64,000 bases of DNA from Escherichia phage vB_EcoM_G37-3. Positions 5,106-46,305 of the stretch are shown piece after piece. Positions within the stretch are counted from its first letter, which is position 1, and every line of letters starts with the position of its first letter. The stretch lies in the sequence record MK327941.1. One strand, given 5' to 3'. The notes below the pieces were generated by a model. It had not been told where the DNA came from, made no database searches, and worked only from the letters and a program-made list of their open reading frames with translations. A program made the position numbers and the translations under genes.

Positions 5106-5106
5106 T

Positions 5107-5646
5107 ATGATTGAAGTAATTCATTACACCAAAGAAGATGAAATTTTATATAATAGACTACATGAACTATTTTATGAAGTTGACGGAAAGGTTTATAGAA
5201 GGTTCTCTCGTGGACGTTCTAAAGCCGGAAGTCTAGTTGGTGGATTGAAGATAAATCCATGTGGATATAGATATTGGAGACTTGCTGTTGATGGTAAAGA
5301 GTTTCAGAGGTCTCATGTTGTTTATCATATGCATCACGGACACACTCCAAAAAAACCACTACAAATAGATCATATTAACACAAACTCCCTTGACGACCGA
5401 GTTAGCAATTTAAGACCAGTAACAGTTACTCAACAAATGTACAACCAAAATAAACAATCCGATTGCACATCTTCATATATTGGTGTTAATTGGAATAAAA
5501 ATTCCAAAAAATGGGAAGCTAGAATTAGAGCTAATGGAAAACGAATCCGTTTAGGTCTATTTGATAATGAAATTGACGCTGCGATTGCCTATAACACCGC
5601 TGCATTATCTAGAGATTCAAAAGTTAACAAATTAAACGATGTATGA
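5107..5646 (+). CDS. HNH homing-endonuclease-like protein with C-terminal AP2 DNA-binding domain
   Basis: HNH motif HHGHTPKKPLQIDHINTN..DDRVSNLRPVT; AP2-like YIGVNWNKNSKKWEARIRANGKRIRLGLFDNEIDAAIAYNTAA; start taken at ATG 5107 (GAGGGA SD) rather than track ATG 5083. Confidence 0.75.
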   Translation: MIEVIHYTKEDEILYNRLHELFYEVDGKVYRRFSRGRSKAGSLVGGLKINPCGYRYWRLAVDGKEFQRSHVVYHMHHGHTPKKPLQIDHINTNSLDDRVSNLRPVTVTQQMYNQNKQSDCTSSYIGVNWNKNSKKWEARIRANGKRIRLGLFDNEIDAAIAYNTAALSRDSKVNKLNDV

Positions 5647-5955: not shown

Positions 5956-7854
5956 CAAAGCAAAAGATTACACAAATTCCTGATATTTTTAATGCTGCTA
6001 CATTCGATGAAATTAAAAGCGCATTAACAGACTGGATGAGAAACCAGGAAGAATTTAAAGATTTTGATTTTAATGGTGCTGGTATTAACGTATTGATGGA
6101 CTTGCTCGCATATAATACCCTTTATATTCAGCAATTCGCCAACGCCGCGCTATATGAATCTTTTATCAGAACGGCAATTAAGCGTAGTTCAGTTGTTCAA
6201 GCCGCGCAAGATTTAGGATATTTGCCAGCAAGTAAAACTAGTGCATCAACTACAATTATGTTGCATGTATCACATCCACGAAATCCGGCAAGTATTCGAA
6301 TCCCACGAGGAACTAAATTTATTGCAAGTGTGGACCGCCAGACGTCTTATCCGTTTGTTACTACAGAAGACGTTGTGAGCGTTTTAGGTTCAAATGGTTT
6401 ATATACTCCTATGCTTAAAGTCGCACAAGGTCGTATTGTTCGTACAGAAATGTTATTTGATCCGAAGAAACAAATTCTGATCCGCGATCCTGATATTGAC
6501 CGCGCTCAGGTTAAATTGTGGGTGGATGGGGCTGAATGGAAAGACTGGACGCGAGAAAGTATTGTTAATGCAACTGGCGCCAGTAATATTTTCTATATGC
6601 GTGAAACCGTAGACGGTCATACAGAAATCTTCTTTGGTGAAGGTGAATCAACTTTATCTGCTGCTGGCGGTGCACTGGAAGCAAATTATATTGGTGGACT
6701 TAAGCCGTCAACTGGTGCTAATATTGTTATTGAATATATTAGCACTAAAGGCGCGGAAGCAAACGGATCTGTCAATTTCACATACGCGGATACCCTTGCA
6801 TCTATCTCTATTGTTAAAATTATTGAGAATCCGACAAATGATCGTGATTATGTCGGTGCAGATGGTGGTGGTGATCCTGAATCAATCGAACGTATTCGTG
6901 AACTTGCTCCGGTAATGCGTGAATCTCAGCGTCGTTGTGTTACTGCTTCCGACTATGAGGCTTTTGTATCTAGCCGTTTTGGTAGTATTGTTCAGGCGGT
7001 ACAATGTTTCACCGATCGAGAAAAACCAGGTTATGCTTTTGTTGCTGTTAAGCCTAAATCTGGTTTGCGATTGACAACTATTCAAAAAGAAGATATGCGG
7101 GATTATCTGGCAAAATATAACCTTGCCCCTATCACACCGAGCATCATTGACCCTAACTATCTGTATATTAAACAGAATATTAAAGTTTCCTATTCAATCA
7201 ATGACTTATCAGAATCAGAGCAGTGGTTGCGCGGTGCGGTTATTGATCAGATTGATGCATATTATACCGACGAAGTGGAAATTTTTAACCAGACCTTTAG
7301 TAAGTCTAAAATGCTTGCGCGTATTGACAAAGCTGATGTATCTGTGATAGGTTCTAGTGCAGAAATAGAGATGGTTCGAGAGATCGACAACTTCTATAAA
7401 GCACCTATGGCGGGAATCAAGTTTTTAAACCAGTATAAGAGCGGAATCAAGTCTAGTTCGTTCAACTTCGAAAAGGACGGTAAACAATACCCGATCCATT
7501 ATGTAAGTACAGAAATGAACAAAGAATCCGGTTTAGCTAAATTGCTGGTTGGACCTTTCCCTGTTGATTCTACAATCGCTTTACCGCACTTCCGGCACTG
7601 ATTTTGATAAAGAGGTTATTGACGGTGCGGACCTATACTTTGAGGTTGGAGAGGTTCAGCATTATGACGACCTTATTTCATGGGATCTGGGTAAACTGAA
7701 TATCAATAGCGATCGCTTTACTGGTTCATATATTGAGTTGACAGCTAAACCGATTGCTGATAACATCTTTACTAAAGACGGTTCTTTGATCGTGTTTGAA
7801 AACGATCTCCGTCCTCAGTACACAACTATTAGTCTGGAGGCAATTGCTCAATGA
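5952..7854 (+). CDS. 6: baseplate wedge protein gp6, interrupted by an apparent +1 frameshift near 7550-7600
   Basis: Track ORF 5952..7601 (549 aa) continues in +1 frame as 7549..7854 (track start is TTG, i.e. not a real start); combined ~635 aa vs T4 gp6 660 aa; 3' end overlaps gene 7 start. Confidence 0.75.
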
Positions 7855-10800
7855 TTAAAGCGCCTAGTGTAACTAGCTTGACAATAGAAAAATTGTCTGC
7901 TAATCAGGCGTATATCACATGGGATGACGTAGGCGAAAACTTCTTTTATTTTGTGGAGTTAGCCGAAACCAGAACACGAGACGGGGAGATCATCCCCGTC
8001 GATGAGTTAAGCTGGGTAAACCTGGGATATACTGCCGAACAAAACTGGTTTGAGGATAAAAACCTTTTTCCAGAATATTATTACAAGTTTCGTGTAGCAG
8101 TAGCCGCAGAAGGATTTGAACAAAGTAAATGGGTTGAGACAGAAGAGTTTCAGACATTTAAAACAAACGCATATAATTTTTCTATGATGCGAGAGTTCAA
8201 CCTTGCAAACGAGTTTATAAAGGAAAAATTTACATACGATAATCGAGAGTATGTCAAGTTTAATACCGACCTTATTCAAGCATCATTGATGAAGGAAGAT
8301 TTTGTCTTTAGTCCTGAATATGCAAACATGACAAATATCTCAAACTACATTGTAGTTGATGAGAACTTTCATGAAATACAGGACCACATAGAAAAAGTTT
8401 GTACTGATATAAACCACACTATGTTAGCGGAAATGAACGGTGTTTTGTACCTTTTCGAACGGTTCCAGCCGATCGTGAAAGTGTCAAATGATAAAGGCCA
8501 ATCATGGAAGGCATACAAGGCTTTTAATGACCGTGTAGGCAATCCGGTTTCCCGTACATGCGTTTATCAGTCTAAAACCACTACTTACGTTTTAGGATAT
8601 GACCGAATCTTTTACGGACGACAAGCGAGCGATACTCGATGGAGCGCGGACGATGTTCGATTTAGTGATGATACGATCACTTTTGCAAAGGTCGGTGACG
8701 AAAACGATTTAGGCTTTGACGTTGAGGTCTTTGGTGTATTTTCCAGATTAACAGGTGATACCACAAAATACGCCGAAGCTATGGCGTGTAGTGATGACTA
8801 TTTGTGGGTTGGTGCTAAAGATGTTATTCGCCGGATTCGTCTTAAGAATACTCCTGTTGATACCGTACAGGGTTCGCCTACGTTTGGAGAAAAAATATTC
8901 GATCCTGATGTTATCCGAGTAACAGGAAATGATAAAGCTGTCATTCAGAAAATGGATGTGGTCGACGGTAAATTGCTTGTATTTGTTACGGGTGAAGTTA
9001 AACAGCGTTATCAAGATCCAACTAAACCAGAAAACGTTGTTCCGTCAGATGATGCGGGTGTATACTTAATAGGGAGTGATGGTCTGTCTTTTCAGAGAGT
9101 ATTTGGCAACACTCCGCAGGAAAGGGAATATATTCAGCATGGGTTCAGTAATATGTCAACCAATGGTGATGAGGTGTTCATAAGCCATTATAATCATCAC
9201 TTCGAAAGCATTTTACCTGATCCAGAAACTGCCGAGAAATATGAATTGGGAGAAGCTGTAAAATATTCTCATGAGCCAACTTATCTAACTGATAAGAAAA
9301 TACATCAAACTACTTTCAGAGCAAGTTATGATGATTTGCGTATTTGGGAGTTAGGACCGCAAGCGTATTATAATGAGGCCGATTATACATGGATGCGTCG
9401 AAACGGTGTCCGTGTGTGGATCACAAATGATAATCGCCCGTTGGTTGTTTATCCAGAGGTTATCTATACTCAAGAAGTTGATACATCTGGCATTCTTGAC
9501 CAAAATAGGATCAACCGAGAAGTTTATGATAAAGGGACCGTGACCTGTTATCTTAACAATGTTAAATTTGAAGGATTCAAACAATATGCATCCGGTGTAA
9601 TGTTCCATAAAAACACAGGAGAGATCATAGGATTCTATCAATTTAATTATCGTGTTCGTGATCAGGTTGGTGTATATTGGAAACCTACAAATGTAGCATT
9701 TGTTGCTGAATTGCAAAATCAGGTTCGAGAGGTTCCCTGGGTTCCGGTTCACTACGATCGAGAGCAAGATCCAGATTTGCGGCCTTTACTGAATAAGATG
9801 ACCCCTGATAGCTTTTTACTTGAGAACGAAAATTTCAGAAAATTCTCTGAATATTATCTGCAATTCTTAAGCGATGGTTCAGGAACATATTATAATAAAC
9901 TAAAAAATCTGATTAAAAACAAATATCCACGCGAGAAAGATGCATATGAGTATCTTTGGTCAGAGATGAACAAACGAAACATCTATGCAGATAAAAACAA
10001 GCGAGATGCGGTAGTAAGATTCTTTGAATCCCGCAAATCAGATTTTTATTCCACTAAGGGCGTGGAGGCTTCTTATAAGTTCTTGTTTAAGTTACTTTAT
10101 AATGAAGATGTGGAAATTGAGGTTGAATCACAAGCCGGACTAGAGTATGATATTGTTGTTAGTTCAACGAACATTGACGAGGATATCGTAGGTCGCACGA
10201 TTTATACTCCAACCGGACGGGCTAACGTGACGTATCTTGAAAGGGAATATGAAGGTGGTCGCCTACGCTGGCGAGTAACCATTCATAACCTGATCGGGCG
10301 GTTCGAAGAAGGTCAAGTGATCAAATCAGAGAAAACAGCGTTTGAAGGGATGATCCTTGTTGGTGTACGTGGTAAAGAGTTGTTGAGTAGTTCAATCGAC
10401 TATATCAACCGCTCACGAAGCCAATACACCATGAAGATTAAAAGTGCATTGCCAGTTTCGCGCTATGCAAATGATGTAATGCGATTCGTTCATCCTGTCG
10501 GCTTTGGGTTTATCGGTGTTACCCTGCTTACGATGTTCATTAACAGCGGGTTGAGCATGAAGCACACCGAGACGATAATTCAATCTCTGAAAAATTATAA
10601 GTTTGACAGCGGATTGCCTAGCGTGTATCCTGATCGGGTGGCAGACCTTGACGTTGACGGAAACATTAAGAAAGACCCGCTTACCGGAAAAGCATTATAT
10701 TTGACTTCACCTTTAATCGGTGATGAATTTCCGGTTCCTCCTGAATATGATCAGGAGAACAGCGAATTGTTCCACGGACTTAAAGCAAGCGAACGAAGAT

Positions 10801-13527: not shown

Positions 13528-14382
13528 ATGGCACAAGTTCCAAAGAAAAGAATAGACACAGGTACTGTCGGCAATCCATCGACTGGCGATATCTTATATG
13601 ATGGCGGTAATAAAATTAACGATAACTTTGATTCAATATATGACGCATTTGCTGATCAACGTCTAAAAGAGATTGATCATGGTGCTGGTCGAATGGTTAT
13701 TCATGCCACGGGATACTATCAGAAACACCCACGACAAAGCTATGCAGGGTCGGCGGTAGAGATTGGTAGCTTACATGATATTGACACAACTCAAGGCGCA
13801 TTAATAGCAATTCTTCCTAAAGCTAAAGTCGGTGAGGGTGTTGTGTTCATAAATAGTAACGGTAGCTTTTCGGCAACAACACCACTAAACATTAGAACTC
13901 AAGCAGGAGATTCTATTAGCGGGTATTCCGGTGACGCGGTAATAACTCAACCTTTCTCAAAAGTCACCGTCTGGTGTACTGCCGTCGAAGGTAGTAGAGT
14001 TACCTGGCGGCTAGGCATCGAAAGTATGTTTACCGACACAACCACACCACTAGATAGGACAGTTAATGTAACTGGAGTTGCAACCAACGTTGCTATTGCA
14101 GCAAAAACAGAATATGTATCAATTAAACTATTAACAACCGCTAGCAATACGACGGGTTCAAAAATGCGCTCAAGCGAAACTCTATTGATGATTGATGCCA
14201 GAGCCGGAAAAGTTTACGCGACAGAATATGCGGTTTTACAGAAAACAGAAGACGAATTATACACGGTTCGTTATTTCATTGGTTCCGGCGATAAAGTATA
14301 TGCAGAGTATAAGGCTACTGGCGAAAATATTCGTTTAGCAGTTAAAGCCACAGACACTATTAAAATCGGGGTTGCTACATGA
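13528..14382 (+). CDS. 9: baseplate wedge / long-tail-fibre socket protein gp9
   Basis: 284 aa; N-terminus PKKRIDTGTVGNPSTGDILYDGGNKIN resembles T4 gp9 (from memory). Confidence 0.8.
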   Translation: MAQVPKKRIDTGTVGNPSTGDILYDGGNKINDNFDSIYDAFADQRLKEIDHGAGRMVIHATGYYQKHPRQSYAGSAVEIGSLHDIDTTQGALIAILPKAKVGEGVVFINSNGSFSATTPLNIRTQAGDSISGYSGDAVITQPFSKVTVWCTAVEGSRVTWRLGIESMFTDTTTPLDRTVNVTGVATNVAIAAKTEYVSIKLLTTASNTTGSKMRSSETLLMIDARAGKVYATEYAVLQKTEDELYTVRYFIGSGDKVYAEYKATGENIRLAVKATDTIKIGVAT

Positions 14383-16181
14383 AACAATTAATTAATATCG
14401 GTAACGTTGTAGATGACGGTACTGGTGATTATCTAAGAAAAGGCGGTCAAAAGATCAACGACAACTTTTCTGAACTTTATACTAAGCTGGGGGATGGAGA
14501 TACCCCCCACGCATCCGGTGCATGGAAAACGCATACAGATCCATTATTAAAGCCTAATTTTGGTGATGCGTGGGCTATCAATACAACAAACAACGCGGTG
14601 TCGGTAGAGCTTCCTAAAGGTGGCGTTGGTGATTATAACAAGACAATTAAACTTCGTGATGTTTGGCGCTCGTGGGCGTCTCATAACGTAACACTTAAGC
14701 CAGCACAAGGTGATACCATTAAGGGATCTCCAATCGACCGTGAGTTGTATAAAGATTTTATGGATGTTGAATTGGTTTATTGTGCGCCTGGACGCTGGGA
14801 ATATATCGAAAATAAGCGAGTTGACACGATCACCACGTCTGACCTAAGCACAGTAGCTAAGGAAGTTTATATTGCCACAGAAGGGCAAACAGATTTCCCT
14901 AATGTATTTGGTTCTAACACATATAACACTCGAAATGTTGAAGTATATTATCGAGGAAACCTTTTATATTATGGCAAGTCTTTTAGTAATGACTCTAACT
15001 ACGGTTCAATCGGTGAGGATGGATCACTTGTTGAACTTGATGGCAAAAGCATAAAACTTCGTTTTCCTTGTTCGGCTGGGGACACCGTTCAAATTATTAC
15101 ATATATGGACGGAATTGCATCATTCCGGTCTAGTTATATCACACACACAATTAGAGTGTATGATACCGGAATGACAGCACTAGAAACTATTCCGGGTGAA
15201 GTGTGGGTAGGTGATTTATCGACGAAAAAAGAATTTACCAATGCTGATTTGGGAGTTAGTAAACGTGATATAATTAACCCAAATTCATTTGAGTTATTAA
15301 TAAATGGTACTCAAATGATTAAAGCTGGTGATGCTGATCTTCCTTCGTTTGTTTGTGAAGGTGCTGACGGAGAAACCGAAGAGAGTTGCGCACTTGCTGG
15401 CGGTCAGTGGGTACAGTCTGGAGAAGATTATTCACTGGTATTTGATGAGAATAGCATTGTAACAGGGATTAAATTAGCTAAAGCGTTGGACAATAGAGAT
15501 ACTATCACAATTCGTTGGTTTAATAACGATATCGGAACTCTATTAGAATGGGATGGTGTCGGCGGAATTAAAGAAAAAGCAGACAAGATTTATCTCAATA
15601 ACGAAGACGAAGTTAATTTAACAAAACAAATTGAATATACCGACTTCCAGAATCCCAGCCAGAAAAACACTCGTCCGGCAGAAGAGTATTCAGGTCGAAT
15701 TATGGATATATATGCACTGTTTGATATTTTCCATCCGATCGGCACGATATACGAAAACGCACATAACCCAGCTAACCCAGCGACCTATATGGGTATTGGT
15801 ATCTGGGTTCGGTATGCGGAAGGAGAATTTCTTGCTGGTTGGTCTTCCGATGCCAGCGACCAGAATTTTGCATTAAACAATAACGATCTTGATATTCATG
15901 GACAACCTACACACACCGCTGGTGGTACTGGTGGTGAAGTTGCCTATCAAATCAAGAAAGATATGATTCCTGAATTACAATCCAGCGATCGTGTTTTGGT
16001 GAAAGACGATACAGGGTCAATTATCATTGGTGGTTGTCAAGTTGATCCCGATGCGGCAGGTCCAGCGTTTACGAAATATAGAGAGGATATCGTAAAAGTT
16101 AATTCTGGAAATGCTGATCCATCAATGATGGGCATTCTTCCTCCATATCGCACCGTTCATCGCTGGTTAAGGGTAGGTTAA
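14379..16181 (+). CDS. 10: baseplate wedge subunit and tail pin gp10
   Basis: 600 aa (T4 602); overlaps gene 9 stop. Confidence 0.8.
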   Translation: MKQLINIGNVVDDGTGDYLRKGGQKINDNFSELYTKLGDGDTPHASGAWKTHTDPLLKPNFGDAWAINTTNNAVSVELPKGGVGDYNKTIKLRDVWRSWASHNVTLKPAQGDTIKGSPIDRELYKDFMDVELVYCAPGRWEYIENKRVDTITTSDLSTVAKEVYIATEGQTDFPNVFGSNTYNTRNVEVYYRGNLLYYGKSFSNDSNYGSIGEDGSLVELDGKSIKLRFPCSAGDTVQIITYMDGIASFRSSYITHTIRVYDTGMTALETIPGEVWVGDLSTKKEFTNADLGVSKRDIINPNSFELLINGTQMIKAGDADLPSFVCEGADGETEESCALAGGQWVQSGEDYSLVFDENSIVTGIKLAKALDNRDTITIRWFNNDIGTLLEWDGVGGIKEKADKIYLNNEDEVNLTKQIEYTDFQNPSQKNTRPAEEYSGRIMDIYALFDIFHPIGTIYENAHNPANPATYMGIGIWVRYAEGEFLAGWSSDASDQNFALNNNDLDIHGQPTHTAGGTGGEVAYQIKKDMIPELQSSDRVLVKDDTGSIIIGGCQVDPDAAGPAFTKYREDIVKVNSGNADPSMMGILPPYRTVHRWLRVG

Positions 16182-16182
16182 T

Positions 16183-16827
16183 ATGATTTCTAAAACACGT
16201 TCTAAAGCAAGCGTATTTTCTAGCGACGCAGCATTCATTTCATACGATCCGGGGTCGAAAGACCCCATTATTGGTGACATTCGCCCAATTGGTGGATTAA
16301 ACGTAGACCAATCTCGCAAAGGTTCTTTTATTAACAACGTACAATCAGCCATTGATGATTTGTATAGCATTTCTATGCTTAATGTCGGTGATGTATTGGT
16401 AACTACAAATTCAACTCCACCGGAAGCGGCTGGACAAATAGAAACTCTTTCTTTCACTGGAACGGTAACAAATAAACACGATCCAGCCGCGACAAAAGTT
16501 GTAATTGAAGTTTTGGGTTATCCATTTGTTGTTAATGTTGGAACATCGAATGTTGCATTATGCGAAATGGTCACAACAAAATTTACTGAATTGAAAGACA
16601 AAAGTATCTTATTCTCTAAAGTTGAGAGGAAAGGTACTGGCAACGATAAAATAGAGATTCAGTATATTGATTCAAACGCACACGAAGCAACGGTCGTAGA
16701 AAAATATGGTATTAGCGTTCGTGGGGAAATAAATTCCCCTGCTCGTTATGGTTATGGTGCATGGTCCAGATTGGGAACGGAAGAAAAATTTGATTCAACA
16801 CTATTTTATTTTAAGCGTATTGCGTAA
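16183..16827 (+). CDS. 11: baseplate wedge subunit and tail pin gp11
   Basis: 214 aa (T4 219); position. Confidence 0.8.
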   Translation: MISKTRSKASVFSSDAAFISYDPGSKDPIIGDIRPIGGLNVDQSRKGSFINNVQSAIDDLYSISMLNVGDVLVTTNSTPPEAAGQIETLSFTGTVTNKHDPAATKVVIEVLGYPFVVNVGTSNVALCEMVTTKFTELKDKSILFSKVERKGTGNDKIEIQYIDSNAHEATVVEKYGISVRGEINSPARYGYGAWSRLGTEEKFDSTLFYFKRIA

Positions 16828-16838
16828 GGTGTAAAATT

Positions 16839-18242
16839 ATGAATAACACTATTAATCACGTAAAAGACGATGCACAGTATGTTAAGTTTGACCCTACCGG
16901 AAATTGGCCTAGCAATATAAAAAACGTACAAGCGGCATTAGCCGCTATTCAGGGATTTGCGATTGCAGGTCTTCCAACGGCAACCGAAGAAACAGCGGGT
17001 ATTGCTGAAATTGCTACTCAACAAGAAGTAGATGATGGGTTGGATGGAACGAAAATTGTTACCCCAAAAACATTGGCTGTTAAGCTGTCAAGACCGGACG
17101 CAACAAAACTTGTCAAAGGGATCACTCGCTATGCTAATAACGATGAAGCTATGGGCGATACTCCAAATATTGCAATTGGTCCTGATACATTAACCCATGT
17201 ATTCGAGAACAAGAAAGCAACGGAAACCGTACAGGGTACAATTAAAATCTGTTCTATGGATGCGGCAAAAATAGGTAGCGATGACACTATGGCAGTAACG
17301 CCTAAAAAGATGCACGCTGCTATTGCTCAGATTGTTCCAGGGTTGATTCCAGAACAAAACACGGCGACCGAGTCCCGTGAGGGTTTAGTTAGACTGGCGA
17401 CAAGCCAACAAACGCTTGCTGGTACTATCAGAGAAGGATTTGCCGTTAGTCCATATGCATTTTCCAACGCAAGAGCCAATGAAAATCAGGCGGGTACTGT
17501 TAAAATTGCCTCATCCCAACAAATGATTGACGGCAATGACAACACAGTAGTAGTATCAGCACAAAAATTTGCGAACACTAAAGCAACCACTGGACAATTC
17601 GGTGTTGTTAAGCTAACAGATAACCCAGGATCAGGCGAGGCAAACACAGCACTGTCGGCAAACGCTCGTGTATTGCCTCTAAGTGGTGGTGTCGTTACTG
17701 GTGATGTGTATCGTCATAGCGGAGGCGACGGAAACCAGTTTATCATTAAAAATGAACTGGATGGTCTTTGTATGCCTATTGGTGGCATCATTCTTACAGC
17801 ATTTAACAGTTTCGACCACGCACAATTCAAAATCTGTAACGGTCAATGGTTAAATAAACACCAATATCCAGTATTATTTTCACGAATCGGTTTCACTTAT
17901 GGCGGAGATGGTGGAGACAACTTTGCTCTACCCGATATGCGAGGGCTTGTTGCTAGAGGATGCGACCACGGTCGAGGACTAGACCCAGGTCGTGGATTTG
18001 GTACTTATCAAGACGACACCATGCAACATATGACAGGTAACTTCCCTGTAGCTAACCGTTGGCGCGGTTGGACTGGTGGTGCATTTGCCATCACAGGCGG
18101 TCAATGGAGCACGAACTATAAAAACGGTGGTGGCGATGATTGGGGTAGTATTGTTAACTTTGACAGCGCAAGACAGGTTAGAACGTCTGGCGAAACTCGC
18201 GTTAAAAGCCTTGCATTAAACTACATGATAAGGGTACAATAA
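16839..18242 (+). CDS. 12: short tail fibre protein gp12
   Basis: 467 aa; repetitive G-T-x-K/AG-x-A-x-IA segments and position after gene 11. Confidence 0.85.
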   Translation: MNNTINHVKDDAQYVKFDPTGNWPSNIKNVQAALAAIQGFAIAGLPTATEETAGIAEIATQQEVDDGLDGTKIVTPKTLAVKLSRPDATKLVKGITRYANNDEAMGDTPNIAIGPDTLTHVFENKKATETVQGTIKICSMDAAKIGSDDTMAVTPKKMHAAIAQIVPGLIPEQNTATESREGLVRLATSQQTLAGTIREGFAVSPYAFSNARANENQAGTVKIASSQQMIDGNDNTVVVSAQKFANTKATTGQFGVVKLTDNPGSGEANTALSANARVLPLSGGVVTGDVYRHSGGDGNQFIIKNELDGLCMPIGGIILTAFNSFDHAQFKICNGQWLNKHQYPVLFSRIGFTYGGDGGDNFALPDMRGLVARGCDHGRGLDPGRGFGTYQDDTMQHMTGNFPVANRWRGWTGGAFAITGGQWSTNYKNGGGDDWGSIVNFDSARQVRTSGETRVKSLALNYMIRVQ

Positions 18243-20011
18243 TGATCGAACAGTTAAACATTCGAAAGATCCCTAACGTCGATGGTGTCCCTGGAGAGGG
18301 ACAGCATTCTATTAGCTGGATTAAAAATGGTGAATGTCTAAGCGCAGCAACCACAGAAACAGGACACGAGGGGACGCTTAACCGCGCCCCTTATGCGATT
18401 CAAGAAAATATTGTTCGTCTGGATGAAAATTCTAAGACAACGGTAACAAAAGTTAACGAAGTTGTTACAGCAGTTAATGATATTAAAACTACTTTAGGCG
18501 CGGTTGCTGATGGTAGTATTATTGATATTGTCAATCAAACTATTGCAAAGGTTGAGTCTGTAGAAGAAAATTTAGGAGAAACTTCAAGGACATTACAAAC
18601 CACAGTAGATGAACTGGCGGAGACAGGAAAGAAAATTGGTGTTCGTCCGGCAGCAGATCCGAGTACACGAACAATATATGATGATATTTCTTTCATCAAA
18701 CAAGAATTGGGCGCTTTCCCTAACTTCAATATCAACGGTTCTCCAGATCCGGGTAGTTCCGGTTCCGGTATCAAATATCGAGTTATCCAGAATACGGAAG
18801 CATTAAACAACCACGGTCAGCGAATCCGCCAACTAGAAAACGACTGGCAAGATTCTGACGTTGGAGAGCTAACAAAACAAGTTAACAAAATGCGAAGCGA
18901 GCTAGGCGATACATCACTAGCAACACAGGACAATGTTTATCTTCGTCTTCGCACAAATACTCGCAATATCGCTAGTATATCAAACGAAGTTCAGGAAGTA
19001 AAGAAAGCGATTCTATTTGAATCAATTCCTGATATCGGGACTAAAGTAACTAAGCTACAATCTGATTATACACAGCTTAATGATGAAGTCAACGGCGTTG
19101 ACGCTGGTATCCGTCCTCGTTTAACTCTTCTGGAAAATAATATTGGCAATCCTCAAGCCGCTGGAAGTATTGATTATCGATTGACTAATCAAGAACGGGA
19201 ATGTGTAGATCTTAAATCTGTTGTCGGTGTTAGTGGTGCTGATGGCCTACGTGGTGAGGTTGCACGAATATCTAACACAGTTGGTACTGATAGTGAGCGT
19301 CATACTATCGCAGGTCGTCTAAAAATTGTAGAAAACACACAGGGACGACTAGAAGCTAGCGTACAGGATATCGAGCAAATGATCGGCGATCGAGATTCCG
19401 GTCTAACCGCCGGGGTTATTAAGCTGTCAAGCGACATGTACGGTAATCCAGAAGGAAGCACGCAGCTTGAACAAGATGGGATCGTGAAAACTGTTAAGGA
19501 ATTGAGCACATCCAATGCAAGTAAGGTAACAGACGTTCCTGATGATGGTTTCCATTATCTACGTAAGCACGGGGAATGGGTTCAGGTCGCATGGGCGGCT
19601 GGTGCATTTAAAAACACCGCTCAGATTGATATTACTCTCGACGGACAAGATCAATACAAAGGAATCCCGCTAAACGATATGACCGAAGAAGTTCCTGCGC
19701 GTGGAATGGTTAAGAGCGAATCTATTGTTACGGTTAACGACAAAGGCTTATTCCGTTGTGTTTTCCGTTGTTCTGTACATGCTGCACATAACGCTACTTT
19801 CGTAGTCGGTATTGCTAAAAATGGTCAGATTGTACATGAGGTACGAAATGGTCAGTATGGAACTGATGATTTAATTAGCTATTCTACCAGTGCTTTCCTA
19901 AATATTGAAAAGGGCGACCGGATCGATATTCGCATTAAGGGCGTATCCGAAGAAACATTAGCGCAACAGCTACAAATTAAAGAGTTCCTCTTTGGAATTT
20001 CTCCGGTATAA
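18242..20011 (+). CDS. wac: fibritin (whisker) with foldon-like segment plus ~120-aa extra C-terminal domain
   Basis: 589 aa; coiled-coil-like repeats; DGFHYLRKHGEWVQV resembles T4 foldon DGQAYVRKDGEWVLL; T4 fibritin (487 aa) ends right after the foldon. Confidence 0.8.
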   Translation: MIEQLNIRKIPNVDGVPGEGQHSISWIKNGECLSAATTETGHEGTLNRAPYAIQENIVRLDENSKTTVTKVNEVVTAVNDIKTTLGAVADGSIIDIVNQTIAKVESVEENLGETSRTLQTTVDELAETGKKIGVRPAADPSTRTIYDDISFIKQELGAFPNFNINGSPDPGSSGSGIKYRVIQNTEALNNHGQRIRQLENDWQDSDVGELTKQVNKMRSELGDTSLATQDNVYLRLRTNTRNIASISNEVQEVKKAILFESIPDIGTKVTKLQSDYTQLNDEVNGVDAGIRPRLTLLENNIGNPQAAGSIDYRLTNQERECVDLKSVVGVSGADGLRGEVARISNTVGTDSERHTIAGRLKIVENTQGRLEASVQDIEQMIGDRDSGLTAGVIKLSSDMYGNPEGSTQLEQDGIVKTVKELSTSNASKVTDVPDDGFHYLRKHGEWVQVAWAAGAFKNTAQIDITLDGQDQYKGIPLNDMTEEVPARGMVKSESIVTVNDKGLFRCVFRCSVHAAHNATFVVGIAKNGQIVHEVRNGQYGTDDLISYSTSAFLNIEKGDRIDIRIKGVSEETLAQQLQIKEFLFGISPV

Positions 20012-20057: not shown

Positions 20058-20990
20058 ATGTCAGGATATGTAACCAATAACCCAAGAGAATTAAAAGACG
20101 CTATTCTGCGTCGTTTAGGCGCACCAGTAATTAACGTAGAAGTCACAGAAGACCAGATTTACGATTGTATTCAGAGAGCACTAGAACTCTATGGGGAATA
20201 TCATTTCGATGGTGTGAATAAAGGATATAAAGTATTTCGTGTTAGTGCAGAGCAAGCGCAACACGGGGTATTTGATTTAAGCGATTCTGGAGTATTCGCA
20301 GTAACTAAAATAATTCGAACAAACGTAGGTAGCGCGGCTACGATGGATGGTACTGCCGTTTATCCGTGGTTTACTGACTTTCTGTTGGGTTTAGCGGGTG
20401 TAAATGGCGGTTTAGGATCTGGCTGTAGTAAATTTTATGGTCCAAATGCAATGGGCGGTGATCTGGGATATTTCGAACAGCTTATGAGCTATCGCGCAAC
20501 TATGCAAAATATGCTCAATCCGCTTCCAGATTATTGGTATAATAGCGCAAACGGACAACTTAAGATTACAGGAAACTTCCGAGAAGGTGATCTCATTGTT
20601 GTTGAATTATATGTTAAAAGCTATATAGACGTTCCTGATATGATCGGTGCGGTTGCTGGTTATGCTCATGCGGGAGGATGTTCTACCGCTGGCGGGATTA
20701 GCGCCGTTTATGATAACCCAACTGCTGGTTTAAGCGGGATTGTTGCTGGCATGGGACCGATCCGTGATAACAAGCAGGGCGCATATAATAACCGTTGGGT
20801 TAAAGACATGGCAACCGCTTTCACTAAGGAGGTGTGGGGGTCCATCATGGCTAAACATCAAGGTCTGCAATTACCCGGAGGTGTCACTGTTGATGGTATC
20901 CGAATCATTGAAGAAGCACGCGCCGACATTGAGAAATTGCGACAAGAACTACTTGACTTAGATCCACCATTTGGTATACTAATGATTTGA
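20058..20990 (+). CDS. 13: neck protein gp13
   Basis: 310 aa (T4 309); position. Confidence 0.8.
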
Positions 20991-21007
20991 TTTATTGGGG
21001 GAGTATT

Positions 21008-21652
21008 ATGAAAAGACGAAACACATTTTTACGATTGTATGTTACCGAATTTTTATCATCCTCCGGCAAAAAGATATATGGAGGGAAACGACACTCTCCA
21101 TATAAAAATTTCGAATCAGACCCGTATGTCGGGTCTGGAGTGATTATAAAACGAGCAATAGAAAAATATGGAAAGGATTGTGTAATTTCCATATCTTGGT
21201 CAAAACCATTTGAAACACCAGAATTATTGAAAGAGGCCGAAGAATTATTAATAGACGAACTCAAAGACAAATATTCCTATTTTTGCGCTAATTTGGTTAA
21301 AGGTGGACAAGGTGGTTCATATTATGACAAAGACAAAAATCCACGCGTAGGAAAAAAGAGAACTAAAGAAAGTCGAAATAAAATGTCAGAGGCAGCAAAA
21401 AATAGAAAATGGACAGAAGAAGGGTTGAAACGTAGAATCGAAGCAACAATTAAAATGAAAAAAACAGCAAAAGTCCCAGATTTTTCTGGCGACAAAAATC
21501 CAGCCGCAAAGAAAATACAGGTAGGAGATCTTATTTTTAATACTGGAAAAGAATGCGCGAAATATTTTAATATATGTCAAGCAACGGTCATAGATAGGTG
21601 CAAAAATCAACGTCCTAAATGGAAAGAATGGAGATATTATGATTCAATATAA
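21008..21652 (+). CDS. putative Seg-like homing endonuclease (degenerate GIY-YIG N-terminus, NUMOD3/HTH-like C-terminus)
   Basis: Start taken at ATG 21008 (GGGGGAG SD; track start 20987 is TTG); LYV..GKKIYGG..YVGSG N-terminal pattern; [15 protein letters not shown] and [24 protein letters not shown]-binding-like motifs; inserted between genes 13 and 14. Confidence 0.5.
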
Positions 21653-23258: not shown

Positions 23259-25579
<2,321 letters not shown>

Positions 25580-25610
25580 CGATAATGCATAAAAAGATGA
25601 GGAAATTCTA

Positions 25611-27608
25611 ATGACTCTATTATCACCGGGTTTCGAAACGAAAGAAACTACTCTCTCCACTACCATTGTGCAATCTGCGACTGGTCGCGCGGCACTGGTG
25701 GGTAAATTCCAATGGGGTCCAGCTTTCCAGATTGTTCAAGTAACTAATGAAGTTGAATTAGTTAATAAATTTGGTCAGCCGGATAATAACACCGCAGACT
25801 ATTTCATGAGCGGGGCTAACTTCCTCCAGTATGGCAATGACCTGCGTGTTGTTCGTGTACTCAATAAAGAAAAAGCAAAAAACGCAACTGTCCTAGCTGG
25901 TAACGTAGAGTTTGAAATCACAAACGAAGGTTCTAACTACAAAGTAGGCGATTCAATTAAAGTAAAATACAATCGTCAGGATGTTGAAACCGCTGGCAAA
26001 GTAACCAAAGTAGATACCGAAGGTAAAATTAAAGGTATTTTCATCCCAACCGGGAAAATCATTTCTCTGGCTAAATCCATTGGTGTTTACCCTAATCTGG
26101 ATGGGTTTACCGTAGAAATCACTTCCGGCACTGGTAACTCAACTGCGGCAATTACCATTTCCAAAATTGTAACCGATTCCGGTCTTCTCTTAACGGATCT
26201 GGAAACTTCCCGTGCCAATATCACAAATCAAACTTTCTTGACTAAACTCAAGAAATATGATATGCCAGCGGTAAGTGCAATCTATGCGGGTGAGATCGGG
26301 GACTCTCTGGAAGTCGAGATCCTAGCACGTAGTGCGTTTAAGAACACCGCACCGGATCTGACAATGTATCCTTACGGCGGTACTCGCACCGCAGCACGCA
26401 ACCTGATTCCATATGCACCGCAGAATGATAATCAATATGCGTTTATTGTTCGTCGTGATGGTGTTGTGGTAGAATCCTATGTACTGTCTACTCTGAAAGG
26501 GGATAAAGACGTATACGGCAATTCTATCTATATGGACGACTTCTTTGCTCGTGGTTCTAGCCAGTACATCTATGCAACCGCTCAGGGCTGGGTAGATGGT
26601 TTCAGTGGTATTATCTCTCTTGCTGGTGGTGTGTCTGCTAACGAAGCAACGATCGGTGGAGTTGGTGCTGATCCGTTCATCGGTGCGATGATGCAAGGTT
26701 GGGATCTGTTTGCTGAACGAGAATCTATTCACGTAAACCTGTTGATTGCTGGTGCATGTGCTGGCGAAGGCGATGCGTTCTCTACCGTACAGAAACATGC
26801 TGTTTCCATCGGTGATGAGCGTCAGGATTGCTTAGTAATGGTTTCTCCGCCGCGTAGCACTGTTGTTAATATTCCGGTGACTACTGCAATTGATAACCTG
26901 ATTGCATGGCGCGAAGGTTCAGGAAACTATAATGAAAACAACATGAACATTAATACCACTTACGCGGTTATTGATGGTAACTACAAATATCAGTATGACA
27001 AATACAACGACGTAAACCGTTGGGTTCCGTTGGCTGCTGATATTGCTGGTTTGTGCGCTCGTACTGATGCTGTATCCCAGCCGTGGATGAGTCCGGCAGG
27101 TTATAACCGTGGTCAGATCATGAACGTGGTTAAACTGGCAATTGAGCCTCGTAAGGCGCACCGCGATCGTCTGTATCAGGCCGCAATTAACCCGGTAATC
27201 GGTGCTGGCGGTGAAGGGTTTATCCTAATGGGTGATAAAACCGCTACGACTGTTCCTAGCCCGTTTGACCGCATTAACGTTCGTCGTCTGTTTAACATGC
27301 TGAAAAAGAATATCGGCGATTCAAGCAAATACAAACTGTTTGAAAACAACGATAACTTTACTCGCGCTTCCTTCCGTATGGAGGTTTCGCAATATCTCAG
27401 CACGATTCGCTCTCTGGGTGGCATTTATGACTTCCGAGTACAATGCGACACCACGAATAACACGCCGGATGTAATTGATCGTAACGAATTTGTTGCTAGT
27501 ATGTTCATCAAACCAGCAAAATCGATCAACTATATCATGCTCAATTTCACTGCTGTTGCAACTGGTTCTGATTTTGACGAAATTATCGGTCCAGCTAACC
27601 AGGCATAA
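25611..27608 (+). CDS. 18: tail sheath protein gp18
   Basis: 665 aa (T4 659); position. Confidence 0.9.
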   Translation: MTLLSPGFETKETTLSTTIVQSATGRAALVGKFQWGPAFQIVQVTNEVELVNKFGQPDNNTADYFMSGANFLQYGNDLRVVRVLNKEKAKNATVLAGNVEFEITNEGSNYKVGDSIKVKYNRQDVETAGKVTKVDTEGKIKGIFIPTGKIISLAKSIGVYPNLDGFTVEITSGTGNSTAAITISKIVTDSGLLLTDLETSRANITNQTFLTKLKKYDMPAVSAIYAGEIGDSLEVEILARSAFKNTAPDLTMYPYGGTRTAARNLIPYAPQNDNQYAFIVRRDGVVVESYVLSTLKGDKDVYGNSIYMDDFFARGSSQYIYATAQGWVDGFSGIISLAGGVSANEATIGGVGADPFIGAMMQGWDLFAERESIHVNLLIAGACAGEGDAFSTVQKHAVSIGDERQDCLVMVSPPRSTVVNIPVTTAIDNLIAWREGSGNYNENNMNINTTYAVIDGNYKYQYDKYNDVNRWVPLAADIAGLCARTDAVSQPWMSPAGYNRGQIMNVVKLAIEPRKAHRDRLYQAAINPVIGAGGEGFILMGDKTATTVPSPFDRINVRRLFNMLKKNIGDSSKYKLFENNDNFTRASFRMEVSQYLSTIRSLGGIYDFRVQCDTTNNTPDVIDRNEFVASMFIKPAKSINYIMLNFTAVATGSDFDEIIGPANQA

Positions 27609-29800: not shown

Positions 29801-30043
29801 ATGAAACAATTTATCGAAGCAATTGAAACTCGCGATCTAACGCTGATCGAAAAAGAATTTGATAAGATCATGGAGGCTAAAAAAGCCCAGATCATCGAAT
29901 CCCAGCGTGTCGAAATCGCATCCAGTATCATGATCGAAGGTGAAGAAGAAAAAGACCGCGATGATGAAAAAGATATGGATGATGAGGACGACGAAGACGA
30001 AGATCGCAAAGACGATAAAAAAGACAAAGAAGACGACGAATAA
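29801..30043 (+). CDS. 67: prohead core protein gp67
   Basis: 80 aa with poly-acidic C-terminus (DDEDDEDEDRKDDKKDKEDDE); same length as T4 gp67. Confidence 0.75.
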   Translation: MKQFIEAIETRDLTLIEKEFDKIMEAKKAQIIESQRVEIASSIMIEGEEEKDRDDEKDMDDEDDEDEDRKDDKKDKEDDE

Positions 30044-30474: not shown

Positions 30475-31170
30475 ATGGAAAAGAACGAATTACTGATCGA
30501 ACAATGGGGCGTTCCTGGTGCTCGCGGTAGTTCGTCATTGCTTGAATCATTTGATGATAAGGCTACAGGAAATCTCTATATTCAAGGGATTTTCCTGCAA
30601 GCCGAAACGGTAAACCGCAATAAACGCTGGTATCCTCGCAGTGTTCTAGAAAATGCGGTTACTAAATACATACATGAACAAGTTGAGACACATCAAGCTC
30701 TAGGCGAACTTAATCACCCAGCAAGAGCAATGCCAGATCCATCTAATGCTTGCATCATAATTGAAAAATTATGGTGGGAAGGTAATAACGTGATGGGTAA
30801 AGCCCGTGTTATTGAAGGGGATAAAGGCGCAGGTGATAAACTTGCGGCACTGATTCGCGCTGGCTGGATTCCTGGCGTTTCCTCCCGTGGGTTGGGTCGG
30901 TTGAAAGACTCTGGTCGCGGATACAATATTGTACAGGAAGGTTTTGTGTTGACGGTTGGTGTTGATGTTGTATGGGGTCCGAGCGCACCAGATGCGTGGG
31001 TAACTCCGGTGGTTGAGTCAACGGATAGCGATTCTAGCGCGTCAGACGCACCAGAAATCGATAAAACCGAAAAAGTGACTAACCCTACAGCCTCACAACA
31101 AAACATCGTAGAATTGAATAATAGCGCGTTTATGGCGCTCGCAGAAGCGTTATCTAAACGCTATAAATAA
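30475..31170 (+). CDS. 21: prohead core scaffold protein and protease gp21
   Basis: 231 aa; GELNHPA and GVSSRGLG segments consistent with T4 gp21 serine protease. Confidence 0.85.
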   Translation: MEKNELLIEQWGVPGARGSSSLLESFDDKATGNLYIQGIFLQAETVNRNKRWYPRSVLENAVTKYIHEQVETHQALGELNHPARAMPDPSNACIIIEKLWWEGNNVMGKARVIEGDKGAGDKLAALIRAGWIPGVSSRGLGRLKDSGRGYNIVQEGFVLTVGVDVVWGPSAPDAWVTPVVESTDSDSSASDAPEIDKTEKVTNPTASQQNIVELNNSAFMALAEALSKRYK

Positions 31171-37579: not shown

Positions 37580-37706
37580 ACTTCACCTCATACATTCATA
37601 AACACAACAACGAATAATACAGTAACAGTTATCAACGCCATTTTCAACCCCATATTCATAATATTTTCTTCGCCTCACTATGGACAGTAGCAGGTCGATG
37701 CGTGCC

Positions 37707-37734
37707 ATTATAGGCATCTAAATCGCTCTGTCAA
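37707..37734 (-). promoter_or_regulatory. sigma70-type promoter (reverse strand) TTGACA-N16-TATAAT
   Basis: Reverse complement of tgtcaa (37729-37734) and attata (37707-37712). Confidence 0.5.
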
Positions 37735-37744
37735 GCACAAAAAC

Positions 37745-37768
37745 AAAAAGCCACCCCGAAGGATGGCT
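37745..37768 (-). terminator. rho-independent terminator after hoc
   Basis: Reverse strand agccatcc-ttcg-gggtggct followed by U-run. Confidence 0.55.
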
Positions 37769-37779
37769 GATAGATTTCA

Positions 37780-38990
37780 TTAAGCAGGATGCGTTTCACG
37801 AATGCGTAGAACTCGCTCTAACGTCGCTCGGTCCAGCTTATGTAACTCTTTGGAATGATACATGAAACCATTGCGAGATTCCATGCAAGTGCAATCACTA
37901 TATTTTTCTTCCGCTGCCGCGATCGTCTCCAGATCTTTGGCGTACTTGCTGGTTGAATAAACTTCTCGATCACGCCACTCTAACCCAGCCTCATTGAATT
38001 TAACAATCTCGTCAAATACCCACCATCCAATGTAGATAAATGAAGTTTTGCGCCACGGGATCGGGTGTACGTAACGAAACATTTTAACAACTTCCATTGA
38101 ACATTTTCGGCTTGTACTTGCTGCAACTTCTACTGTTTCATCTTCGATCTGTTGATATAGTTTAGCAACACACCAGAATTTGGCTGTGTCATCGTAAGTA
38201 GCACTCTCTTTGAACAGATGACCGTCTGGCATGATAGAAAATCCTTCCAGTGCTTCGCCGACCTCACTACCGATTAGAGTCGGTGACGGTTGCCCTTCGC
38301 GCTGCAAATACCAGTTATATTTGATCGTCAATTAGGCATACCGCTAGAATCGCCTACAATGTCCTCTGACACAACATAATTAAGTGATATCTCATTACCT
38401 AGTGCCACGGTCTTTGATTCCACCACATCCTGATCTACGTTCATTGTTGCCAGCATGATTTTAGTCGATGCGCTAGCGGCTGAATCTTCCGACTCGCCCC
38501 ACTTTTACAGTATACACGCCGTTTTTATCTGCTGTAAATTCTTGGATCGTAATATCCTTTTTTGTGTCTATAACGTCATCGCCCTTACTCCAACTATAAT
38601 GTAGTTCATAGTTGTCTGCTGGAGTCTTCCCACCAGAAAAATTGACTGTTGCATGTAATTCTACGTCTGTTTGTGATGATACGTAGAATGCTGCGGTTCG
38701 GTGATATTTACGATTAATGCAGCTTCTTCCATGAGGAAAACTTCAGATTCTACTGATGTCATCGTATCGGTATCTTGTACCGTTACTTTATAGCTACCCG
38801 CATTTTCACTTGTTGCGTCTGCTACAGTTAGCGTAGCTGTGCTATTTTCATGCGGTTGGTCGTCTTTTGTCCATGTATATGTCAAATTGCTGGGTAATGG
38901 TTCGTCACCCGCTACAGTCGCCGTTAAGGTGAAACCATCTCCAGCAAGAAAACATCTTTTGTTAGATTGTATTGATACTGTGAAAGCCAT
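37780..38990 (-). pseudogene. hoc: hoc (outer capsid decoration protein) split over four reading-frame segments
   Basis: Track ORFs 38661..38990 (Ig-like: LTYTWTKDDQ..SYKVTV) and 37780..38331 (FRYVHPIPWRKTSFIYIGWWVFDEI..ESRNGF resembles T4 Hoc C-terminal capsid-binding domain); the 330-bp gap translates as further Ig-like segments in two other frames. Confidence 0.7.
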
Positions 38991-39085
38991 ATAAAGCCAC
39001 TCCCATCGAAAATCCGAATTTAATTAATTGAAATAGTTGATTGTCATCAACCAGATAACCATTGCGAGATTCCAATACATGAGTA

Positions 39086-39250
39086 TTAGAATAGTGATGC
39101 AACGAGGCCGAAATAGTATCGATCTCGTCTGGGTATTTGTTCTGCTATAAAGTCTGCTGTACTAACAACAATCTTTAACAGAAGTGGATGACCAACGGAG
39201 CCATAAACCGGATCTTCTGTTTGATGTAATACATTGATTTTGTTAGACAT
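39086..39250 (-). CDS. hypothetical small protein (54 aa from internal ATG)
   Basis: Track ORF 39086..39274; GGGAG SD before ATG 39250. Confidence 0.4.
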   Translation of the reverse strand: MSNKINVLHQTEDPVYGSVGHPLLLKIVVSTADFIAEQIPRRDRYYFGLVASLF

Positions 39251-39330
39251 GTAGTTCTCCCTTTTTAATTGCATAACGGAACTACAATTAAAATTATAAC
39301 AAATATTTCACAACTTTTATCACCCAAAAA

Positions 39331-40056
39331 TTACTTGAGTGTGTGGAATTGGCTATGTTTAGTCTCTCGCACCTTGACAGACCCATCGCGTTTGATATAA
39401 TAGATCAGTGACTTGAGGGTGTCGTGTACATACGCGTGTGGGAAACGCTCTGGATACTTCTTCCAATCTGGAGTATTAACGATCCAGTCGAAAATCCACC
39501 ACGGGCAGGAGTAGTAACCACGACCGCCACCGATCAAACAAATGGTTGGACGGAAACCAGTAAGATCGCAAAATGAATCAGTGTCATGTGCAGGAGAACG
39601 ATGTTCGGCTTCGTCAGAGAAAATGTTTGCTACCGGAGATTTCACTTTAACTTCCGGTGCTTCTTCAACATCTGACTTAACTTCTTCGACCACTGGTTCA
39701 ACTGCTGGAGATTCTTCTTTTGTTTCTTCAATGACGATCTCAGGTTCTTTCATTGCTTCAACCAGAGACGGATCAACTTCGTCGAATACTACTTTATCAT
39801 CTGCGGTGTCTGCTGCCAGAATAAGATCGTTAATACTGGTTCCTTCTGCCGGAGTTTCTTCTTCCATTTCGGAAGCCAGTTTAGTTAATTCGGTTTCTAC
39901 GAACTCGATCATGTTCTCTAGTGAGAACGTCTTTTTGACCTTAATATCAAATTGTTTTGCGTAGTCCGCTAATTCTGTTTTAGCGGTTTTCTGTGCTTCT
40001 TTGTCGTCGGACGCCGCAATAGCGCGGAGTTCTTCGAAATATTCTTTATCAAACAT
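39331..40056 (-). CDS. acidic protein at the T4 inh position (possible inhibitor of prohead protease)
   Basis: 241 aa; Glu-rich middle; position upstream of hoc as inh in T4 (from memory); identity not verified. Confidence 0.4.
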   Translation of the reverse strand: MFDKEYFEELRAIAASDDKEAQKTAKTELADYAKQFDIKVKKTFSLENMIEFVETELTKLASEMEEETPAEGTSINDLILAADTADDKVVFDEVDPSLVEAMKEPEIVIEETKEESPAVEPVVEEVKSDVEEAPEVKVKSPVANIFSDEAEHRSPAHDTDSFCDLTGFRPTICLIGGGRGYYSCPWWIFDWIVNTPDWKKYPERFPHAYVHDTLKSLIYYIKRDGSVKVRETKHSQFHTLK

Positions 40057-40082
40057 GTTATTCTCCTGATTGGGGGTGTTTG

Positions 40083-40090
40083 TATAAATA
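40083..40090 (+). promoter_or_regulatory. late promoter motif TATAAATA upstream of uvsW
   Basis: Exact motif about 37 nt upstream of ATG 40127. Confidence 0.5.
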
Positions 40091-40126
40091 TTTGTATACT
40101 GTATTTATTGAGTGAGGCTATTCGCT

Positions 40127-41814
40127 ATGCAAGATATTAAATTCACTTTCTGAACTACTCCCATGTTCAAATTGAATGTAGCGATTCAATTTTATTAGAA
40201 ATGCGAGATTATTTTAGTTTTGAAGTCGAGGGAGCGCGGTTTCAAAAAAGATTTAAGTATGGTGGATGGGATGGGCGTATTCGTCTTTTAGATTACAACG
40301 GAAAGCTGCCAATCGGTCTAACTAAAACCGTGGGAATCTTCGCTAAAAATATGGGCTATAGCGTATGGGTAGATCCTCGCTTATTCGAAAAAGAACAAGT
40401 TACAGAAGAAGAAATTACAAAATGGTGTAATAACTTAGAATTATATTCCGGTGCTAACAGGATCACCCCTCATTGGTATCAATCAAAGGCCGTCTTTGAA
40501 GGTATTTCATCATAAACGCCGTATGTTAGTTTTGCCTACGTCCGCTGGTAAATCTGCGATTGCTTGTATGTTGTCTCGTTGGTACTTAGAGAATTACGAA
40601 GGGAAAGTGTTGATCATCGTTCCTACCACGTCGCTAGTGCTGCAAATGCGTGATGACTTTGTTGATTATCGCCAGTTTCCTTATGAAGCAATTCATACTA
40701 TCATGAGCGGTACTAGTAAACACGTAGGTGATCGCCTGATCGTTGTTAGTACGTGGCAATCTGCATGTAAACAACCTAGTGAGTGGTTCCAACAATTCGG
40801 GATGGTTATTGTTGACGAATGTCACAAGGCCACTGCTAAAACCTGCTAAACATCGTTACTGATATGGATCATTGTCAATTTAAGATCGGCATGACTGGTT
40901 CCCCTCGTGACGGGAAAGCTAACATGATGCAGTATGTCGGGCTTTTCGGTGATATTTCTAAGATCGTGAGTATTGACCGCCTGATGGAAGAAGGGCAGGT
41001 GACAAAACTGAAAATTAACTGTCTTTTCCTTCGTTATACCGATGAGGAATAGCGCGGTTAAGGGGCGAGAATATGCGGAAGAGATCAAGTACATTACATC
41101 TAACCCACGACGAAATAAGTTTGCTTGTAATTTGGCGCTAAAACTCGCTAAGAAGGGCGAAAACGTATTCCTGATGTTCCGCAACACTAAGCACTGAAAA
41201 TTAACTGTCTTTTCCTTCGTTATACCGATGAGGAATGTAGCGCGGTTAAGGGGCGAGAATATGCGGAAGAGATCAAGTACATTACATCTAACCCACGACG
41301 AAATAAGTTTGCTTGTAATTTGGCGCTAAAACTCGCTAAGAAGGGCGAAAACGTATTCCTGATGTTCCGCAACACTAAGCACGGAAAACTTATGTATGAT
41401 GCGTTACAGAAGGTACACGACAAGGTTTATTATATTGACGGTGGAGTTAAGACAGAAGAACGTGATGAATTTAAGAAATTAGCGGAAGGGGAAACCGGGA
41501 TCATTTGCGTTGCATCCTATGGTGTGTTCTCTACTGGTGTTTCCATCAAGAATTTGCATCATGTTATTTTCGGTCATCCAGTGAAGGAATCAACTATCGT
41601 TCGTCAGAGTATCGGTCGTGCATTGCGTAAACATGGTTCTAAGGATATTGCAACGGTCTGGGATCTTATAGATCATCTGGCGGTGAAGACAAAGAGCAAT
41701 AATGCTAAGAAACAGTTTAGCCACCTTAATTATGCTCTTAAACATGCGCTTGAAAGAATAAAAATTTACAACACCGATCGATTCGAATATGTCACGAAAA
41801 CAATCGAGATTTAA
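40127..41814 (+). pseudogene. uvsW: uvsW (RNA-DNA/DNA-DNA helicase) disrupted by at least three frameshifts and an internal tandem duplication
   Basis: Pieces MQDIK (40127), frame A to 40515, frame B to 40849, frame C 40840..41052, frame C 41191..41814; each aligns to consecutive segments of T4 UvsW as recalled (FSFE..RF..RFKYGGWDGRIRLLDYN, LPTSAGKS, DECH, SPRDGKANMMQYVG, HGSKDIATVWDLID). Confidence 0.75.
41007..41380 (+). repeat. perfect tandem duplication inside uvsW (copy 1 41007-41192, 186 bp; copy 2 41193-41380, 188 bp)
   Basis: Copies identical except a 2-bp (gt) deletion in copy 1 that creates TAG at 41050-41052. Confidence 0.85.
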
Positions 41815-46281: not shown

Positions 46282-46305
46282 ATGACGCATTAACATCATT
46301 TCGGG

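Follow-up and report, generated by a model that had tools for sequence, protein, structure and literature searches.

The hoc gene, as it stands in the record of Escherichia phage vB_EcoM_G37-3 (MK327941.1), is broken into pieces, which raises the question of whether this phage has lost the Hoc protein or whether the fault lies in the record. The window analysed here, a stretch of 64,000 nucleotides, comes from a Krischvirus, that is, an RB49-like T4-type coliphage. The whole window was aligned to ECD7, RB49 and Phi1, and all ECD7 proteins were compared with it in translation.

The hoc Gene as Written in the Record

According to the ORF listing and to a direct reading of the letters, the minus strand at positions 37780-38990 carries a hoc orthologue in four collinear pieces, and all the hoc features described here lie on that strand. 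The first piece belongs to an ORF at 38661..38990, encoding 109 amino acids with the N-terminus MAFTVSIQ, in which codons 1-101 (38990..38688) correspond to Ig-like domain 1 and are followed by eight out-of-frame codons and a stop. Lesion 1, a one-base deletion at 38687..38688, falls in codon 102 (CATTTC to CATTC, leaving TT where all relatives have TTT). The second piece (38501..38687, codons 102-164, Ig-like domain 2) proceeds in a frame shifted by -1 up to lesion 2, a two-base deletion at 38497..38502 affecting codon 164, where the window reads GTGGGG and all relatives read GTGTGGGG. The third piece (38330..38500, codons 165-220) is again in the frame of the first, and it is ended by a TGA created by lesion 3, a one-base deletion at 38330..38331 in codon 221 (AATTTG to AATTG, TT versus TTT in all relatives). 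The fourth piece (37780..38331, codons 221-404) is found as an ORF of 183 amino acids containing FRYVHPIPWRK...IGWWVFDEI.

When the window was aligned with the hoc of ECD7 and RB49, which is intact and 1215 nt long in both, exactly these three lesions emerged. An earlier reading of the same DNA, made from the sequence only, had placed the N- and C-terminal ORFs in different frames, and this was confirmed, every peptide that it quoted being found. Its description of hoc as four segments was right as to the number of pieces, but not as to the "two other frames" assigned to the middle ones: only two frames are used, in the order 0, 2, 0, 2, because the shifts are of -1, -2 and -1. It had also located one shift at a GGGG run near 38490-38500. 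However, the relatives have four G there as well, and the missing bases come from the adjacent GTGTG (AAAGTGTGGGG to AAAGTGGGG, at about 38500). Since one GT/TG unit has been lost beside the GGGG run (GTGTG to GTG), lesion 2 is not a homopolymer event.

Restoring the four orthologous bases yields a single ORF of 404 codons, and, because this ORF matches RB49 Hoc, the pattern of breaks is not a product of chance. As written, hoc is not one continuous ORF, being frameshifted at codons 102, 164 and 221, and its longest product with the start codon of the gene is the 109-residue protein, which is devoid of the capsid-binding domain and has no exact match on record. Even out of frame, the pieces retain 98% identity to ECD7 Hoc in the translated comparison. 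A terminator-like hairpin (37749..37768, minus strand) lies just 3' of the hoc stop, its T-tract showing a private one-base deletion at about 37744, and a scan of the hoc strand 5' of the gene showed no consensus T4 late promoter (TATAAATA).

Identity of the Repaired Hoc

At the level of the sequence, the identification of the gene as hoc is secure, every defining feature being present except the continuity of the ORF. The repaired protein aligns along residues 1-304 with RB49 Hoc (PDB 3SHS; E = 2e-194), from which it differs at only 8 of 304 residues, and its residues 297-384 align to residues 282-367 of T4 Hoc (PDB 5VF3; E = 4e-15), that is, to the capsid-binding domain. The Ig-like N-terminal string is present, with Pfam matches to PKD, Ig_3, I-set and V-set, and the protein matches PHROG 1149 ("Hoc-like head decoration") with E = 3e-83. 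These matches bear out the initial proposal of a hoc gene with an Ig-like N-terminus and a capsid-binding C-terminus. By its predicted domains, the gene is an ordinary Krischvirus hoc, made of three Ig-like domains and a C-terminal capsid-binding domain, and in itself nothing new.

T4 Hoc (PDB 5VF3 and others) is a highly immunogenic outer capsid protein, present as one molecule per gp23 hexamer. It shares with the window Hoc the architecture of three Ig domains plus a C-terminal domain, although the Ig domains are only distantly similar in sequence. The hoc genes of RB49 (with three N-terminal Ig-like domains in PDB 3SHS), ECD7, GEC-3S and Phi1 have the same length of 404 codons, and the RB49/ECD7-type gene occupies the same place, between the gene 24 cluster and inh/uvsW, with the same downstream terminator. 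What sets the window copy apart from them is its three frameshifting deletions, which none of the 56 related records shares. The repaired protein also contains CMESRNGF, which includes the ESRNG sequence described as the capsid-contact loop of Hoc (PMC10385173). Hoc is dispensable in the laboratory, and the known T4 hoc-minus stocks, with the Hoc(-) deletion-mutant capsids that have been used, are laboratory mutants (PMC10385173); they differ from the present case in that they are not multiply frameshifted natural alleles.

Comparison with Related Phages

Positions 37600-39200 of the window match 58 phage records with up to 98.6% identity (ECD7, GEC-3S, Phi1, RB49 and others), none of them identical, and the gene order (gene 24 cluster, hoc, small ORF, inh, uvsW) is the same in ECD7 and RB49. 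The stretch that includes the three hoc sites measures 419 nt in the window, and each of the 56 matching phage records has four bases more across it (423 nt for the full query). Recurrence of the lesions in independent sequences of the lineage, as might be looked for in a pseudogene, was thus not observed, the hoc deletions being present in none of these 56 records. In the relatives inspected, the annotated hoc is intact, with 1215 nt in ECD7, RB49, GEC-3S, FL37, phiS and Phi1, and 1227 nt in JK32.

A scan of contig collections covering the junction of the two-base hoc deletion gave no exact-string match among viral, metagenome or genome contigs, an exact look-up of the Inh product returned no match, and the literature, searched for reports of a frameshifted hoc among RB49-like phages, yielded nothing relevant. 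FL37, phiS and JK32 were considered as further carriers of a split hoc and rejected, each having an intact gene of the size given above; the multiple annotations under the hoc match correspond to small flanking ORFs or, in JK32, to a second hoc gene.

The Neighboring uvsW Gene

The uvsW helicase gene (40127..41814, plus strand) is also multiply hit. It carries four small indels, at 40139 (-1, falling at codon 4-5), 40505 (+1), 40838 (-1) and 41050 (-2), all of them private to the window within a panel of seven phages. In addition, a tandem duplication spans 41007..41380 on the plus strand, with a first copy of 186 nt (41007-41192) and a second of 188 nt (41193-41380), identical save for the two-base deletion in copy 1. 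Its junction (AAGCAC/TGAAAA, compared with the native AAGCACGGAAAA and AAAACTGAAAA) displays an imperfect microhomology (AC-GAAAA), and no exact-string match to it was found in viral contigs. Judging from the bases at the junction, a genuine duplication by slippage or template switching would leave such microhomology, which is not expected from a simple concatenation of contig ends.

A megablast search against complete E. coli genomes and plasmids returned only a prophage uvsW homologue with about 85% identity, and no plasmid matches. This chromosomal DEAD/DEAH helicase gene, approximately 85% identical at the nucleotide level to uvsW (window positions ~40306-41679), is present in 32 of 5426 complete E. 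coli genomes. In strain CFSAN061761 (positions 7821-9311 of locus L013) it is placed beside a recombinase and phage tail and baseplate genes, inserted in ycdX, and it is therefore part of a prophage, which means that a uvsW-type gene is common to a temperate phage and the lytic Krischvirus group.

Lesions in Baseplate Genes 6 and 29

Private two-base deletions are found outside hoc and uvsW as well. In gene 6, which encodes the baseplate wedge protein, the deletion lies at 7590..7593 (plus strand; CACTATTCC to CACTTCC) and leaves the last ~87 codons out of frame, so that a C-terminus conserved as far as T4 gp6 is lost. The corresponding stretch measures 601 nt in the window and 603 nt in 58 of 58 related records; phage G5211 is 99.7% identical over it, and two gap columns make up the whole difference. 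In gene 29, the deletion is found at 46300..46305 (plus strand; TTCGCGGG to TTCGGG), at about codon 9, and the extra bases are present in all full-length matches (57/57). In this case an in-frame ATG at 46306 follows just past the deletion, and gp29 might therefore still be expressed.

In T4, both of these baseplate genes are essential. A plaque-forming phage carrying the gp6 and gp29 lesions as written is unlikely. The frameshifts are thus not confined to dispensable genes, as they would be under simple pseudogene formation.

Indels and Substitutions across the Window

Throughout the window, 18 private indel events occur in a well-conserved context, and nine of them are gathered within 3.45 kb (37744-41192), a cluster to which a Monte-Carlo scan assigns P of about 1e-5. 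In conserved coding sequence there are nine small private indels, each of 1 or 2 nt and none a multiple of three, whereas the indels of 3n length found in the window sit in the naturally divergent gp12/wac module. The density of private substitutions at 38-42 kb is 0.4-0.75%, as compared with 0.1-1.25% in the other conserved bins, and shows no enrichment. In the seven-phage panel, hoc has three private substitutions versus three private indel events in 1211 nt (small counts), uvsW has five versus five (the four small indels plus the duplication), and inh, located between both genes, has three private substitutions and no private indel. An excess of substitutions beside the indels, which would be a mark of a pseudogene, is consequently not seen in hoc, with the caution that the counts are small.

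Sequencing Error or Loss of Function

The presence of private indels of one or two bases in uvsW and in the essential gp6 and gp29, in addition to hoc, makes a sequencing or assembly error, and not gene decay, the most likely explanation. We infer a technical cause for the lesions, and the probability that the three hoc deletions are errors of this kind, with hoc being one intact 404-codon ORF in the real phage, can be put at roughly 0.7. The "split" of hoc is, then, most likely no biological feature. The sequence-only reading had mentioned homopolymer sequencing error as one possibility; error is indeed the favored reading, but lesions 1 and 3 are the only ones in hoc to which the word "homopolymer" applies. 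Considered as a pattern in the letters, a process that is restricted to indels, is locally concentrated and also strikes essential genes looks like a poor-quality stretch of the record, and unlike evolutionary decay.

Indel errors and uncollapsed overlaps are a known class of artefact in draft or long-read assemblies. The present case resembles that class in its private, non-triplet indels of 1-2 nt in short runs or repeats, in the hits on essential genes, in the local clustering at a normal level of substitution and in the near-identical tandem duplicate differing by one indel. It departs from it in that two-base deletions outside homopolymers, together with a microhomology junction, are no single platform's textbook signature. 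The most likely course of events would be as follows. Quality appears to be low over ~3.5-4 kb of the record (roughly 37.7-41.9 kb), a stretch in which an indel-prone process would have added or dropped one or two bases and an uncollapsed or spurious overlap or repeat of 186 nt would have been left in uvsW. Coverage may have been poor or limited to a single read, a long read may have been left unpolished, or a gap may have been closed by a join, and the lesions in gp6 and gp29 would represent isolated errors of this type outside the stretch.

A counterpoint to this explanation is that T4 uvsW mutants are viable and Hoc is dispensable, so that both multiply hit genes are just of the kind that a phage could do without. 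Their lesions might accordingly be real, the result of a recent inactivation, in the course of propagation, of two genes dispensable in the laboratory, after which further indels would have been neutral, giving a phage that is both Hoc-minus and UvsW-minus. This is considered unlikely, although it deserves to be weighed. It agrees with the non-essential nature of Hoc under laboratory conditions (PMC10385173), with the fact that all the lesions are placed at sites of the type at which replication slips (short runs, dinucleotide repeats or microhomologies), and with the microhomology at the uvsW duplication junction. However, real loss through multiple neutral hits needs time, and private substitutions are as few as indel events in both genes, in a region where substitution density is normal. 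Moreover, no private frameshift is seen in inh, in alt or in some 7 kb of the window's small accessory ORFs, while the essential gp6 and gp29 bear a private two-base deletion of the same type, and neither the hoc two-base junction nor the uvsW duplication junction appears in any other record or contig tested. The idea of decay on the grounds that Hoc is dispensable, also raised in the sequence-only reading, leaves unexplained both the hits in essential genes and the approximately 1:1 ratio of indels to substitutions.

Frameshift-rich synthesis has been described for break-induced replication, and something akin to it could be imagined here, in the form of one error-prone event of repair or recombination-dependent replication whose tract would run across hoc, inh and uvsW, with clustered frameshifts and a template-switch duplication. 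Such a tract would match the strong spatial clustering of indels without an excess of substitutions, as well as the presence of a microhomology-flanked tandem duplication inside the cluster. Still, the isolated two-base deletions at a distance of 30 kb (gp6) and 5 kb (gp29) would be left unexplained, the lesions occur in no independent sequence, and a low-quality read accounts for the same pattern more simply; this origin is regarded as very improbable. Just as little credit can be given to its more specific version, in which seven small coding frameshifts and a microhomology-mediated duplication of 188 nt would have knocked out Hoc and the UvsW helicase in a natural Krischvirus. Finally, programmed recoding, by which ribosomes would shift -1, +1 and -1 and so translate the split gene into full-length Hoc, is consistent with the collinearity of the pieces and nothing more, and it was rejected as having practically no chance of being right: the sites are not conserved shift signals, because all 56 relatives (56/56) encode an uninterrupted ORF there, direct reading reveals no X XXY YYZ slippery heptamer at CAT TCT ACG, AAA GTG GGG or AAT TGA CGA, and one gene would need three different shifts.

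If the lesions are artefacts, as favored here, they are a matter of quality control: annotations drawn from the record would wrongly present hoc, uvsW, gp6 and gp29 as pseudogenes or fragments, and the record would be unfit for citing as an example of a natural Hoc-less phage. Should they be real, we would have a Krischvirus that is Hoc-minus and UvsW-minus in nature, a case of modest interest for ideas on Hoc-mediated adhesion or dispersal and for phage therapy stocks.

Other Differences from Related Phages

The spacer between hoc and inh (39031-39250, minus strand) contains a relic of a second hoc gene, whose counterpart in Shigella phage JK32 encodes a protein of 846 amino acids. The 5' part of the relic comprises 34 codons from the start of the gene (MSNKINVLHQTEDPVYGSVGHPLLLKIVVSTADF), which share 76% identity with residues 1-34 of the JK32 second Hoc, and the 3' part comprises 37 codons from its end (NKYPDEIDTISASLHHYSNTHVLESRNGYLVDDNQLF), which share 86% identity with residues 810-846 and contain an ESRNG loop. 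Both parts are joined out of frame, an arrangement that, from the alignment, implies a putative internal deletion of about 2.3 kb. ECD7 has the same relic, part of which is annotated there as a hypothetical protein of 54 amino acids. This shows that real decay in the lineage takes the form of a large ancestral deletion shared with relatives, and the private point indels of hoc are unlike it.

Around positions 14000-20000, the module formed by gp10, gp11, gp12 and wac has diverged much further from ECD7, RB49 and Phi1 than has the remainder of the window, with private substitutions of 16-27%, as against under 1.3% in most bins, and many 3n indels. From its divergence, it looks like a swapped or fast-evolving adsorption module. 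Three further differences from ECD7 concern mobile elements: an ORF of 221 amino acids between genes 13 and 14 (20987-21652), only 29% identical to ECD7 SegC; an extra ORF of 187 amino acids between 5.1 and 5.4 (5083-5646), which does not align to ECD7; and an insert of about 327 amino acids in ECD7 gp17 (positions 23475-26291 of locus L003), absent from the window. Lastly, gp67 is represented in ECD7 by two short ORFs (positions 30519-30760 of the same locus), while the window (29801-30043), Phi1 and RB49 have one ORF of 80 amino acids. The difference between ECD7 and the window amounts to one base in a run (CCC versus CC, at window position 29886), and at this gene it is the reference ECD7, and not the window, that looks frameshifted.
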